DNA from: Octopus vulgaris
Lineage: Eukaryota
Assembly (NCBI GenBank): GCA_951406725.2
Contig: OX597833.1
Coordinates: 34,100,001 to 34,164,000, forward strand
DNA length: 64,000 bases
Reading direction: 5' to 3'
The position numbers and the translations under genes were made by a program. Position 1 is the first letter of the stretch. Every line of letters starts with the position of its first letter. The notes under the pieces are model-generated. The model was not told where the DNA came from. It ran no database searches and worked only from the letters and a program-made list of their open reading frames with translations. Positions 4,105 through 18,968 of the stretch are shown here, one piece after another.

Positions 4105-4299
4105 ATGGAAGGTATAGCCGACCGTAGGGAGGCACGGCGCCCAATGAATTCATTTTTCATCTTTTGTAAACGCCATCGAAGTATGGTTCGAAGTAAGCAC
4201 CCAAATTTGGACAACCGCAGCATAAGTCGCATTTTGGGTGACTTATGGGCAAATCTAGGCAAGGAAGAGAAACAACAATATACAGCAACTGCTAAACAG
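4105..4299 (+). CDS. BBX: BBX (bobby sox) HMG-box transcription factor, coding exon 1 (N-terminal part of the HMG box)
   Basis: Translates as ARRPMNSFFIFCKRHRSMVRSKHPNLDNRSISRILGDLWANLGKEEKQQYTATAKQ, a BBX-type HMG box. Acceptor ttacag ends at 4098, ATG (gccATGg) is at 4105, and the phase-0 donor gttaga is at 4300. An upstream exon outside the window is likely. Confidence 0.93.
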
Positions 4300-5274: not shown

Positions 5275-8200
5275 ATTAGACAATTCCTTGGATAATGGAA
5301 CATTACCTTTAATGATTCTACAAAAAGAAAATAATTTTGTGTATCCTTGTCGTAAATCTGTGTTACCACGTGTAGCAACCACGATTGAAAACACGCCCCT
5401 TTCTACTTTGTAAAGATAATTGTTAGTACATCCCGAATTCTAGAAAAACCATACACACAGTTTTATATATCAGCACGCACCACACATGAATATATACACA
5501 AAGCGAATTTAAATCATACTTTCTTCTTCTTCGCTGAGGCATTGCAGGGAGTATCGTGTGCACATTATAAACACACCAACCATTGAATCCTTACATCTCT
5601 TGATTGTACATATAATTGTATCTTTTTTCATTCATACAATGAGGAAAGCAAGAACAGTTAACAACAAAAAATAAGATATTATTTATTTATCTCCCTAACA
5701 AGTGTGCACATTATAAACACACCAACCATTGACTCCTTACATCTCTTGATTGCATATATAATTGCATCTTGTATATACACATACAATGAGGAAAGCGGAA
5801 ACAGTGAACAACAATAACAACAAAAAATAAAACATCTTATTTATCTCCCTAACAAGTGTGCTATATCTTCACATTTTTTTCTTCTTTGTTTACCTTTGTA
5901 CTACGGTACGGATGGGCAGACAGAACAAAACTGCCACAGTATCATCCATGGATGAGCTGTGCAACAAAACTGGTCGCTGTCCTAAAATAGAGCGTTGCCT
6001 AGCAAATCATCTATGCACAAAACTCAAAAATTCCTTCCGAAATAGATGGGTTGAATGCAGTAAATGTTGTATTTCGATATGCTTTCAATGTGCCACAAAC
6101 TTTCAAAAGATCCCAGGTCAAAAGAAAGGACACCATACTTCTATGATGGATAAACTCTGGGAAATGGTCCAGCTACTAAACTGGTCATTTCAGTGCCTGA
6201 CTTGTGTGTCCCCTGCTACCATTGCTACTGAACAGCAACAACAAAATCCAACAACTGTGTCTTCTGCTGCCATTGCTGCTGAACAGCAAAGACCAACTGT
6301 TATGTCTCCCAAAACCAGTTCTATTGATGAAGAACAACAAAAAAAGTTAAAATCGGCCATTCCTGTTGAAGAACATCAACAAAAACTTAAGCCGCCTGTG
6401 TCTTCCTCCCCTGTTTGCTCTTCAACAACAAAAATTGATCATTCCAGCCGAAGTACATCAGCAGGAACAAAAACTAACCATGCCCTCCTCTCCCAATACT
6501 TCTCAACATCAGCAAAAACCGACCATCAGCACAGAAGTTGCAGAAATTAGACATATAATTTCTGCTTTAAGCCGCGAAATAGCAGGAATCAAAACCAGCG
6601 TCTGTGCTAAACCTCACAATGAGGGGTCATATCGGAGTGCCTTGCTCAGCAATTTACCCGAAGCTCTTATGGAACCTCAACACATCGAGGAAGTTGCTGA
6701 ATCAACCACTCATGAGGTAATTGCCATCGGAGTATCAGAAGATGTGGTAGATCTACAGACATTTACTGGAAACACACCTAAGGACCTAAGCTGTGTTCCT
6801 CCAAAAAGTGCTTTCCGCCTTGGCCGACCAGGATCCAAACCCAGACTGATCAGGCTGATGTTTTCAAACTCTGCTGAGGCGCGGGCATACCATCTAGCTG
6901 CTGATAGGGCTCGACGCGAAAACAGAATTACCTTTAGAACACGTCCTGGCCTACCACCTGATGTACACCCAAAGCTAAGATCTGTAGCTTCCCTAAATCG
7001 CAACTCTGTTCCACAGGAAAGCTTTAGCCTACGCGATGATGGGCAAATATGGAAATTTATCAAGTCTGGTGAGTTGTGGATAAGGGATATCAGTTAGACT
7101 GAGCAAACTGCACCCACAATAACTGGCAATACAAAAATCATGGAAAACTAAACAAGAACAATCAGCCATTCCCTGTATATCATCGCCATCTGAAATCCAG
7201 ATACAAACTGTTGTCCTTGAATGTCCGTAGTTTATGCAACAAGGTACATCTTTTTGACTCTTACGTCAAAAGTATCAACCCAGATTTCATCACAGTCACG
7301 GAAACATGGGCACATTCTGCACTCTGTGATGGGGTTTTCAGCATAGCCAGCTACAACCTGTTCTGCAAAGACTGCATTAATCGCTGTGGTGGGGGTGTGA
7401 TGGTTTATGTTCAATCAAATCTATCGGCAATTCCTTGTGATGATTTGAGCCAATCTCAACAGGAAGTATTTTTCTGCAATATACACATGACCATGTCAAC
7501 ACTTCTGCTTGGAGTTGTTTACCACCCCCCCAAATTATCATCAAGACACACAACTTTTTGATATCCTCAGAGCTGCTGCCAGGAAAACAGCCACTTATGT
7601 TTATATTGTAAGGGACTTCAATTTCCCTGAGATTGACTGGGAGGCCTTCCGTTGGCTGCAAAGTGCAGACAATTTCCTTGAACTGGTGCTGAATTCAAAT
7701 TGGTCCCAAGTCGTTACCTCCCCCACAAGGGGTAACAACACATTGGACCTGCTACTTACCGCTTCTCCTCAAACAATTATTAGTGTCACTACTGACACAG
7801 CAAAGTGTTCTGGAAGTATGTACACTTAAAGCAGAGACCTCGCTCTCCAGTTGGTCCCCTTCGCAATCCCCACACAGGGCAGATTACTGGCAATCCCAAA
7901 GATTATGCAGAAATCATTGCTGGATGCTATGTAGGCATCTTTACTGTCGAAGATCAAAATTTTCCATCTCCATCACCTCTGACACCGGACTCTATAACTA
8001 CTATGAAATTTACACCAGCAATGCTACAACGCCACCTTAAGAATAAACGTAACTATGCCTCTCCTAGTCTCGATGGTGTTACATACCTACTTCTCAAACG
8101 CAGTGGGTACTTTCTTCTAAACCAACTTTCACTATTCTTTCAATTCTGTCTTGACAATGGTGTTATTCCAGAGCAGTGGAAAACTGCCAGTGTTATCCCT

Positions 8201-9629
8201 CTGTTCAAAAAAGGTGACCGTACATCACCTGTCAACTATCACCCCATTAGTCTTACTAGCTGCATCACCAAACTGATGGAATCCTGTGTCAGAGAAACCC
8301 TCTGGAATTTCTGGAAGTCTCACAGCCTCATCCAGCCGTCACAATTTGGTTTTATTCCTAACTCCAGCTGCTGTAATCAACTCATCGAGTTTCTTGAGGA
8401 CATTACCCGAATCACTGATCGCGGATCCAGGGTGGATGTTGTTTACCTGGCCTTTGCTAAGGCTTTTAATTCTGTGCCACACAAAAGACTTATGGTGAAA
8501 CTCTCTGTGATGGGTGTAAGAGACGATCTCTACAACTGGTTGAAGTCCTTTATTATCGGCCAAAAACAGGTTGTCACTGTTCTTGGCCACCTTTTATTTG
8601 TTGCAGATGTTAATGACATAAATGCCAACTTAAAGAATGCCACAGTGCTGAAATATGCAGCTAACATCAAGCTGTACCTCGAAATAAAGAGGTCAGATCC
8701 TATACACTATAGATCTCTATTGCAATCAGACCTAGACACAATGCAGTAGTGGATCATGGACTGGCAACTCAAGCTAGCTGTGGACAAATGTACCACCATG
8801 CATTTTGGGAGGAAAAACCCAGCATCTACTTACTCCCTCCACAACACTAATCTCAAAAAGTCTTCTCATGAACATGACCTGGGCATTATTGTCGACAGTG
8901 ATTTGCGTTGGACAAAACACATCGCTAAAATTGCCAAGAAGGCTGAGGGTGTCTTGGCATCACTCGCCAAGTCCTTTGTGAGACGCTCTCCGGCTATCTC
9001 TCTACGGCTTTATATAGCTATGGTACGACCTCACTTAGAATTTGCATCACCGGTCTGGAACCCCTATCTTGCCCAGGATATTAATCGTCTGGAAGCCGTT
9101 CAGCGACGTGCAACCAAGAGAATACCCTCCATCAGGCATTTGCCATATTCTGAACGCCTTACTTTCCTGGGCATGGATACATTGAAACTCCGACGTCTGG
9201 CAGCTGACTTGGCAGACACCCATAAAATTATTAACCGTTCTTACAAACAATAACTCTGAGCACCTTTTCGAACTCCATCTGTCTAACACCCGTGGACATG
9301 TTTACAAAGTCAGAAAACAGCACAACTCACATGACTTTTGGAAACATTTTTTCATGCTAAGAGTTGCTGAAGCATGGAACAAACTGCCAGCATCAGTTGT
9401 TAGTTGTCGGAACACTTCATCCTTCAAAACTTCCATGCTTCCTGAGATTCGCAAACACTACACCTGATTTTCTCCCCTCCGTACACACGCAAGCATGTAT
9501 CTGACTCATACACTGTTCGCTTTCCAGATATTTGTACATTACTGCATATACTTTATACGCACTTTTGACAAAGTGTGGTGCACCTGAGCACTGTATACAA
9601 TAATTTCTTTATATATTTATATTTATTAT
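5275..9629 (+). mobile_element. Near full-length, inactivated CR1-clade LINE (5' UTR, ORF1, APE endonuclease, RT, 3' UTR)
   Basis: ORF1 runs from 5912 to about 7097 and is frameshifted (Cys-rich N-terminus; FRLGRPGSKPRLIRLMF). APE motifs LNVRSL, VTETW, GGGVMVY, DFNFP, NTLDL (7205-7800). RT motifs PLFKKGDR, YHPISLTS, QFGF, AFAKAFNSVPH; YADD has decayed to YAAN. CR1 C-terminus VRPHLEFASPVWNP, LEAVQRRATK. ATT-type tail. Internal deletions near 7800 and 8580; stop at 8747. Confidence 0.93.
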
Positions 9630-16974: not shown

Positions 16975-17345
16975 CAGGCATGGTTATGTGGTAAGAAGTT
17001 TATTTCCCATTTACATGGTTCCAGGTTCAGTTCCACCATATAGCAACCTTGGGCAAGTGGATATGGTAGACAGAAACTGAAAGAAACCTGTCATTTACAT
17101 ATATGTGTGTATGTTACTGTGTCTTTGCTTTGACATTTCATGATAATTGTAAAGGCATGTCACCATCATGTAAGCAATGTCCTTCATTTCTAGTATTCTG
17201 TGAAAATGTATCTGGTTATGGGAAAATATTACCCTGCTTGGAAGTAGTTTGGTAACAGGAAGGGCATCCAACCACAAAAGATGCACCTCAAGAAATTCCA
17301 TTCAGACAATGTGGGCATGGAAAAGTGGTCAGTAAAATAAAAATG
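16975..17345 (+). mobile_element. SINE with a family A head and an RTE-type tail
   Basis: ggcatggttatgtggtaag...ggttcagttcca head; aggaagggcatccaacc...gcatggaaaagtgg tail. Confidence 0.65.
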
Positions 17346-17698
17346 AAAGTGATATACACATGTACACACACAATATATAGAATATATTACAGTGCAATTG
17401 TAAGTTTTCAGTAAACCGAGTCTATTAAGCAGTTTTAATTTCATCTTGGAACTATTTCAGGTGAGTAACTAATGCTATCAAAGAAGCATAACACAAATTT
17501 CCATTTTTGTTTCAATAAACGTTTCTGAAACATTTAAACTGTATATGAAATAAGTTTGTGTGTGAATGAAGGTATCACTGTGTGATTGGAAAATTCATTT
17601 CACAAGCATGTGGTTTTGATTTTAATCTGCTTTATTCTTGGGTTAACAAGTTAATGGAAGCTGTGTGGAAGTTCAACTAAAGGACTGTCTCTGTTCTT

Positions 17699-17930
17699 AT
17701 TTCTTTACTGCCCACAAGAGGCTACACACAGAGGGGACAAACAAGGAAAGACAGACGGATTAAGTCAATTATATTGACCCCAGTGCGTAACTGATACTTA
17801 TTTAATTGACCCCAAAAGGATGAAAAGCTAAGTCGACCTCGACGGAATTTGAACTCAAAACATAGTGGCAGACGAAATACCGCTATGCATTTCGCCCAGC
17901 ATGCAAACGTTTCTGCCAGCTCACCACCTT
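17699..17930 (-). mobile_element. tRNA-derived SINE, family B (well-preserved copy), fused to the 5.8S segment
   Basis: Minus strand GGTGGTGAGCTGGCAGAAACG...GAGTTCAAATTCC (B-box); CpGs retained; homologous to 20184-20397 and 40673-40885. Confidence 0.85.
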
Positions 17931-17955
17931 CTTTTTGGTGGGGGACGATGGGATT

Positions 17956-18067
17956 CCGGGGCTGCAATGTGTGTTCGAGGTGTCAATGTTCACTGAGTCC
18001 TGCAATTCGCATCAGTTCACGCAGATAGCTGCGCTCTTCATCGACGGACAAGCCGAGTGATCCCCTG
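17956..18067 (-). pseudogene. 5.8S rRNA-derived retrocopy, truncated at both ends
   Basis: Minus strand reads GGATCACTCGGCTTGTCCGTCGATGAAGAGCGCAGCTATCTGCGTGAACTGATGCGAATTGCAGGACTCAGTGAACATTGACACCTCGAACACACATTGCAGCCCCGG. This is collinear with metazoan 5.8S rRNA, including the CGATGAAGAnCGCAGC and GAATTGCAG motifs. No 18S or 28S sequence is adjacent. Confidence 0.92.
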
Positions 18068-18321
18068 TCTGTTCTTGGCTAGTAGATTTACTCCTTAACT
18101 TGATTTAACACCACCATTTTGCTCATGGGTACAAATATTCAGGCCAAATCTCTGGTCTGAGGATAACTTACTCCTTTCTTTTCTTGGAGGCTTAACATAA
18201 GGGCCATGGGTGCTATCTTTCTTCCTTTAGGCCATAAAGCAAATACATTCTGCATGTATGATTAATACATATTAATACATCTGAACATAGATTCTTACTT
18301 AGATTAATTTTATCTTTCCAG

Positions 18322-18490
18322 TATAAGGATGCTTTTATGAAAGCCAATCCAGATTATAAGTGGCACAGTTATGAGAAATCAAATTTACTGCTGAATACAA
18401 GTTGTGTTCCTACCTTCAGAGATGATCAACCACTTCCTGCATCAAAACCAAATATCTCTTCAGATATCACCAATAAAGGCTTCAATAAAG
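18322..18490 (+). CDS. BBX: BBX coding exon 2 (completes the HMG box)
   Basis: Acceptor tttccag, then YKDAFMKANPDYKW, which matches BBX YKDAFMKANPGYKW in phase 0. Donor gtaagc at 18491, phase 1. Confidence 0.93.
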
Positions 18491-18968
18491 GTAAGCTGAA
18501 GTGCATTTTAGAAAACTTTAACCCTTTCAAGACCCTATAGTAGTTGTTGTTGATGCTTATTACCTATTAGTAAACACTGATCCAACTCAACTACATAATC
18601 AAAGGTGTTCCAGATGCAACCAACCTGTCTCTTTTTTCAGACATAGCCTATCTAAAACTACATTATCTAATGTGTCCTTCCTTCATTTAAGACAGTAGGA
18701 TCTTGGAGGAGATTTGATTGCTATTTCGGGTAGGTCCAACAAGCCATGTAGCTGTTCATAGTTACAGAAGTATTTTATGTGGTTTGTGACCATGTCCCCT
18801 CTTATTTTTTGCTGTGGGTGTGTACAGAATTTATTTGTGTTCAAATTTAGCCTTTCTTTGCAAAGTATATGTGAGTAACCATCGCTCAAATACCATATTG
18901 ATCAACGAAGCAAAAAATGCACACCATTTTTATTTGCATATTATTTGATATTTTAACATGAAATTGTA

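Follow-up and report, generated by a model that had tools for sequence, protein, structure and literature searches.

A 5.8S rRNA-SINE chimera in an octopus genome is one of dozens of independent small-RNA fusions

Chimeric retroposons with a small cellular RNA at their 5' end are known from vertebrates, in which U6 has been found joined to L1, to L2 and Mon-1 in platypus, and to AnolisSINE2 and RTEX in the anole (Doucet et al. 2015, PMC4476161). We describe fusions in the octopus that resemble these U6-LINE and U6-SINE chimeras in having a 5' small RNA, a 3' retroposon of the same polarity, one duplication and many independent junctions, and in that SINEs of non-L1 partners can form the 3' part (PMC4476161). 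They differ in their acceptor, which here is 5.8S rRNA, a Pol I product; the term "5.8S" is absent from the main text of that paper (PMC4476161). Further differences from the vertebrate U6 chimeras are the invertebrate host, partners that are usually full-length SINEs, and linkers that vary with the state of the captured RNA.

The Drosophila element R2 makes template jumps in vivo to U12 snRNA and tRNA (Eickbush and Eickbush 2012, PMC3414825). As in those jumps, the octopus fusions connect the 5' end of a full-length element RNA with the 3' end of a small stable RNA, and post-transcriptional additions (CCA in the R2 case) were preserved in DNA, as they probably are here; R2 is site-specific and autonomous, with few cases described, whereas the octopus events involve non-autonomous SINEs at dispersed sites and number in the dozens (PMC3414825). 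Human U6/L1 chimeras ligated by RtcB have the same product layout (Moldovan et al. 2019, PMC6789731), but that reaction uses a cyclic phosphate and a 5'-OH and involves 5'-truncated partners, whereas the partners here are mostly 5'-complete. Tailless retropseudogenes are likewise retrocopies of structured RNAs, often 3'-truncated, and 5.8S was among the queries used to find them (Noll et al. 2015, PMC5322556); they have no retroposon part, whereas most of the 5.8S copies described here carry one.

The octopus fusions have the features of chimeric retrogenes, namely a 5' part of mature RNA sequence without gene flanks, a 3' retroposon part of the same polarity, a single duplication and independent junctions. 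SINE3 is a SINE family whose head derives from an RNA other than tRNA or 7SL. SINEU (Kojima 2015, PMC4494074) and SINE28 (Longo et al. 2015, PMC4994717) also have such heads, as do the fusions described here, and template switching has been proposed as the origin of new SINE heads (PMC4494074, PMC4994717). Both were described as families, whereas the 5.8S set lacks the marks of a family. By Kojima's criterion, under which independent chimeras imply many plain 3' partners and families share structure (PMC4494074), the 5.8S set falls among independent chimeras. The table of rDNA-derived elements in a 2024 review includes 5S, 28S and spacer cases and none from 5.8S (PMC10946416). In the open-access literature we found no report of 5.8S as a chimera acceptor; an earlier mention elsewhere, for example in subscription papers, in supplements or in the repeat databases Repbase and Dfam, is possible. 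This kind of chimera is itself known, and what is new is the 5.8S acceptor, the invertebrate host, the whole-SINE partners and the informative linkers.

The locus lies in the window, by which we mean the entire 64-kb stretch of DNA that was analysed, on contig C20, which also carries an rDNA array near 24 Mb. Its 5.8S part matches Rfam RF00002 on the minus strand (72.9 bits, E 3.6e-16), the sole gathering-level Rfam match in the window. Alignment to the genome's own 159-nt 5.8S, taken from the C20 array, showed that it comprises nt 8-135 at positions 18069-17942 with 93% identity, and that it is mature 5.8S sequence without ITS1 or ITS2. It carries nine substitutions, seven of which are CpG transitions, the pattern that a copy residing in the genome would acquire, and one of which is a C at nt 127 that is probably the older state. 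A first-pass annotation had recognized 5.8S on this strand, but assigned it about 110 nt, too short, followed by a linker of about 25 nt, more than half of which is 5.8S in our alignment. The true linker is the A-rich 11-nt minus-strand sequence CCACCAAAAAG at 17941-17931, which matches neither the continuation of 5.8S nor the start of ITS2, so the comparison with the species' own 5.8S and ITS2 that the annotation had proposed found no source for these letters.

Behind the linker is a full-length SINE, here called family B, at 17930-17699 (about 232 nt, alignment 6-232 of 232), with an intact 5' end, an A-box-like motif and an A-rich 3' end. All parts share minus-strand polarity, as first annotated. 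The sequence TCTGTTCTT stands at both 18068-18076 (upstream copy) and 17690-17698 (downstream copy) and so brackets the whole 5.8S/SINE unit, again in agreement with the first-pass annotation; the last two minus-strand letters of the upstream copy also fit 5.8S nt 8-9 as microhomology. A longer, 14-nt duplication with a 2-nt indel had been offered as well and was rejected, because its additional letters belong to 5.8S and the empty site described below gives nine.

A long intron of a putative HMG-box (BBX-like) gene likely contains the chimera, in antisense orientation, judging from a likely plus-strand exon at 18322-18420 that has a weak PDB match (BBX 1wz6, E 0.15). A second likely exon, an HMG-like frame found by its motifs, lies near 4150-4290 on the plus strand, about 14 kb away from this exon, and a donor-like site at 17459 falls within the span between the two. 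Pfam gave no match above the cut-off for four frames of the window, and the chimera at this locus is without sign of function.

Four of 24 listed DNA sequencing runs were compared with positions 17200-18700. In each of the two runs from organism E, one contig joins 17689 directly to 18068 and skips 378 nt; these contigs are at single-copy depth, nine of their letters fit either side, and the shorter side is 255 letters long. Contigs from organisms B and D cross the 5.8S/SINE junction (17901-18001 and 17906-18002), and in both organisms contigs also cross the left flank into the SINE, with B additionally crossing from 5.8S into the right flank; among the contigs listed, none spans the entire insert. 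The empty site, with one target copy, thus stands beside a filled site common to three organisms. Since the flanks are joined without the insert in one organism and the junction is present in others, the window chimera is one retroposon insertion with one 9-bp duplication around both parts. The single integration event that had been proposed at first pass is therefore upheld, and the empty site it had suggested looking for carries the nine-letter target once.

The genome (2.8 Gb, 227 contigs) was searched for dispersed 5.8S copies with three sequence patterns, which gave at least 69, at least 91 and at least 56 matches, or at least 113 places together. From 112 loci examined we obtained 114 aligned 5.8S segments, 38 with spacer sequence and 76 without. 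A SINE partner aligning to one of five references, each of which is itself one of the 5.8S loci, was found within 60 nt of 58 of the 76 spacer-free segments (B 43, C 6, D 4, A 3, F 2), a count that leaves out four self-matches to references (G, H, I) defined from single loci. SINE types A, B, C and D recur elsewhere in the examined DNA, F only in its two chimeras, and the unclassified partners matched no Rfam family. A stricter test for the head alone placed a SINE-type head at most 60 nt behind 53 of the 76 spacer-free segments, compared with 24 of 1500 random positions and 1 of 76 mirror-image upstream positions; no SINE was found behind any of the 38 spacer-bearing segments.

Some loci have other structures. 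A 265-nt element of no recognized class, with a TAC repeat at its end, stands behind 5.8S at L098:2135-2399 (minus strand) and L124:1655-1919 (plus strand), with two different junctions, and occurs nowhere else in 1.1 Mb of examined DNA. Four 5.8S copies (L103, L083, L076, L131) have internal repeats or an inverted pair at their ends, which suggests slippage or repeated jumps. At L126 a duplication lies 28 nt after 5.8S; this locus was considered as a 5.8S-LINE chimera and rejected, because a duplication at that position indicates insertion into an older LINE. The rDNA array itself (C20, about 23.94-24.08 Mb; L003-L009, L069-L071) has an 18-kb unit in which the 18S match of about 2,640 nt and the 28S match of about 4,890 nt are long for animals, and further rDNA units or fragments lie on C1, C2, C5, C29 and C33.

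Family B is a repeated element: the window copy is 87% identical over 227 nt to another copy, and family-B matches of at least 80 nt occur in 145 of 332 examined sequences, many of which were chosen because of B. The first-pass annotation had called it a complete tRNA-SINE, and its full length and repetition stood, while the tRNA origin found no confirmation. ARAGORN reported 0 tRNA genes and Rfam no tRNA match at E up to 10, and relaxed ARAGORN gave weak matches only on the examined loci. The fold of the head (z -1.82) is not cloverleaf-like, and an A-box-like motif was matched, with the strict B-box pattern unmatched. OK is one of the named octopus SINEs. Others are OR1, OR2 and Ceph-SINE (PMC4758252, PMC4824008, PMC5786205).

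Between a family-B SINE and its duplication there are often one to five tandem partial copies of the SINE body (L014, L026, L039, L072, L074, L095, L127, and the ordinary copies L038 and L040). No partner LINE with a family-B tail was found in 70 LINE-bearing loci, made up of the 30 top RVT_1 matches, 20 of an RTE-like window fragment and 20 of an R4-like fragment; by their motifs, we take the LINEs examined to be CR1-like, RTE-like and R4-like. A very abundant young LINE with near-identical copies, frames of up to about 950 aa and an ATT-repeat tail (L263, L266, L269-L291) dominates the reverse-transcriptase matches, and the window holds an older, broken relative of it at 5831-9477.

Other RNAs have been captured as well. 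A SINE or SINE tail stands behind 19 of the best 30 of 48 U6 matches (L143-L172) and behind 9 of 13 dispersed 5S matches, picked outside the C4 cluster from 47 (L175, L182, L233-L241). For 18S, a SINE follows 4 of 20 examined 5'-end pieces (50 matches) and 2 of 30 examined 3'-end pieces (39 matches), 22 of which have spacer. Capture is thus not peculiar to 5.8S, which often serves as the acceptor. The U6 partners are mostly short tails of types C and A and the 5.8S partners mostly whole B elements, a contrast that we do not treat as a preference because the two samples were drawn differently and differ in age. The U6 and 5S fusions often lie inside TA repeats. Several 5S copies have a common 3' extension unlike the trailer of the examined C4 5S gene, which suggests that precursors were captured from another type of 5S gene.

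The ends of the captured pieces follow a pattern. Among 55 copies spanning the middle of 5.8S, 50 start at nt 15 or earlier, mostly at 5-9, a clustering partly favoured by the 5' search pattern, and the 5.8S start overlaps the duplication by 0-3 nt in 11 of 19 cases. Of 28 truncated chimeras, 8 have their 5.8S end within nt 56-66 (L092, L106, L119, L120, L104, L138, L121, L127), a cluster that may mark a preferred cleavage site or decay stop. Linkers of at least 3 nt begin with T in 17 of 20 cases (A in 3) where 5.8S ends at nt 150 or later, and with A in 13 of 17 (T in 3) behind shorter 5.8S; the cut-off between full-length and truncated 5.8S was picked after the data were viewed, with p 1e-4 for the contrast, 7e-5 to 6e-4 for cut-offs of 140-155, and a rank correlation of 0.65 (n 37). 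Because the linker base depends on the length of the acceptor, and bases that the enzyme added before reaching the acceptor should presumably show no such dependence, the linkers likely include tails of the captured RNA. The U-tail half of this reading is weaker than the A-tail half, at about even odds, since an untemplated A on the cDNA would also read as T. The window linker, likely an RNA tail and/or untemplated additions, is A-rich behind a truncated 5.8S, yet atypical in its first bases, CCACC, which are the reverse complement of the SINE's first bases; these may reflect chance, fold-back copying or CCA addition, which are inseparable from one case.

The window chimera, a 5.8S piece and a full-length SINE in one insertion, is one of dozens of independent small-RNA/SINE fusions. 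We consider it probable that it arose by end-to-end template jumping during target-primed reverse transcription, in which a LINE enzyme, having reached the end of the SINE RNA, continued on the 3' end of a 5.8S molecule. The first-pass proposal for the class of mechanism, in which retrotransposition joins a small RNA to the 5' side of a retroposon, is supported. The data show the single insertion, the recurrence, the independence of the events, the intact SINE 5' ends and the linker bias, whereas the jump, the RNA tails and a lack of amplification due to promoter position are inferred. One insertion produced one 9-bp duplication around both parts. Target-primed reverse transcription would have run from the 3' end of the SINE to its 5' end. 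The enzyme would then have switched to an abundant RNA with a free 3' end, in this case a 5.8S molecule that stopped at nt 135 and probably bore a short A-rich decay tail, the source of the linker. The copy lacks the first few bases of 5.8S, and at that point the cDNA would have been joined to the target through 0-3 nt of microhomology. The resulting fusion would be a dead end that does not multiply, because transcription from the promoter inside the SINE would begin downstream of the 5.8S part, and it would later decay at CpG sites.

Alternatively, 5.8S or a cyclic-phosphate piece of it could have been joined to SINE RNA by RtcB or another ligase before retrotransposition of the product, a route demonstrated for human U6/L1 and considered for small RNAs with truncated 3' ends (PMC6789731). 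Such ligation would leave the same genomic anatomy, one duplication with variable junctions, and a genomic product cannot directly show the RNA-level step; the U6 chimeras in this genome also have mostly short SINE tails, as from cleaved RNA. An RNA 5' end made by Pol III would carry a 5' triphosphate. Since a triphosphate much reduces ligation by RtcB (PMC6789731), and 41 of 43 family-B partners retain the family's 5' end (start at nt 12 or less), which would be triphosphorylated, these partners count for jumping over ligation. In addition, tailed 3' ends would be 3'-OH ends, which RtcB joined with low efficiency (PMC6789731), and the microhomology in junctions without a linker fits annealing during a jump. 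We therefore regard ligation as unlikely for the window chimera. It fits as well as jumping where the partner is a tail only (for example L022, L061, L086, L135 and most U6 cases), and ligation first remains an explanation for chimeras with truncated partners.

The first-pass annotation had left a choice between a one-off chimera and a composite SINE family that amplifies with a head derived from 5.8S. A one-off does not agree with the 53 spacer-free segments that have a SINE-type head just downstream. An amplifying family would be in keeping with the predominance of family B (42 of the 53 heads), with the clustering of 5' starts at nt 5-9, and with one junction common to five copies, yet it would be expected to show one common junction of head and body and the diagnostic substitutions of a master copy, and the 5.8S chimeras show neither. 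Among 52 chimeras (one flank duplicate dropped) there are 47 distinct junctions and five partner types; variable junctions were the outcome that the annotation had linked to recurrent template switching. The repeated junctions are an end at nt 153 without a linker, seen five times, and an end at nt 74, seen twice. The five end-153 copies start at nt 4, 7, 8, 9 and 14 and include both states of nt 127, no pair of them has two common non-CpG substitutions, and their junction sits on an AGG common to the 5.8S end and the SINE start. Apart from two flank duplications, the 5.8S copies do not form lineages marked by shared non-CpG substitutions; in a few further pairs two or three substitutions are common to both members, with no nested groups. 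The window linker did not recur among the 40 best matches to the junction. A 5.8S-headed family is thus very improbable, and the 5.8S-SINE fusions are dozens of independent events, neither a one-off nor an amplifying family.

Insertion in two steps, in which a tailed 5.8S retropseudogene came first and a SINE later entered its A- or T-rich tail, might be expected where SINEs are dense, with 10 family-B matches in the 64-kb window, and where a few 5.8S copies have no SINE behind them. It predicts duplications around the SINE alone. In 33 of the 43 family-B chimeras the 3' end is complete, so that duplications could be sought, and at a score of 8 or more the whole unit was flanked by a duplication in 19 of the 33 and the SINE alone in 0 of 33, with none reaching the cut-off in the other 14. 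Mismatched pairs gave 18 of 1056, and ordinary SINE copies with a complete end 15 of 22, with five further copies lacking a complete end left out. At the window locus, the empty site is without both parts and holds one 9-bp target, and polarity is the same throughout, so two-step insertion there is largely refuted, and we regard it as extremely improbable. Both parts are very abundant sequences that an assembly or library artefact might have joined, but such an artefact has a negligible probability given the nine substitutions in the 5.8S part, seven of them at CpG, the presence of the junction in contigs from organisms B and D, and the empty site in organism E.

The 5.8S copies also bear on the history of rDNA. 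One change is widely common among them, a C at nt 127, present in 37 of 48 dispersed copies and in the window copy; the present rDNA array has T. Median divergence is 7.5% in the 37 C copies versus 3.9% in 10 T copies (p 0.007), and spacer-bearing fragments split in the same way by nt 127 (10.4% for C, n=9, versus 0.35% for T, n=22). Because both the C copies and the spacer-bearing C fragments are more diverged, C at nt 127 is likely an older rDNA state and a record of rDNA turnover, and captures of 5.8S appear to span time. U-tails of 1-6 nt on 5.8S have been reported in C. elegans (PMC7472701), and truncated 18S and 28S in human cells carry mixed A-rich tails (PMC1474067). We advance more tentatively, at slightly less than an even chance, the broader proposal that the SINE-mobilizing reverse transcriptase routinely jumps onto the 3' ends of abundant RNAs and that the linkers form a dated record of germline rRNA quality control, in which full-length 5.8S would have carried U-tails and truncated decay intermediates A-rich ones, across the change from C to T at nt 127.

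With dozens of natural events, these findings add an invertebrate host and a Pol I product to what is known of small-RNA/retroposon chimeras. Because most partners are 5'-complete, the set can inform the question of whether such fusions arise by template jumping or by RNA ligation. It also makes visible the raw material for new SINE heads, while those derived from 5.8S have not amplified. Should the linkers be RNA tails, past rRNA tailing, decay and rDNA states would be readable from genomes alone.
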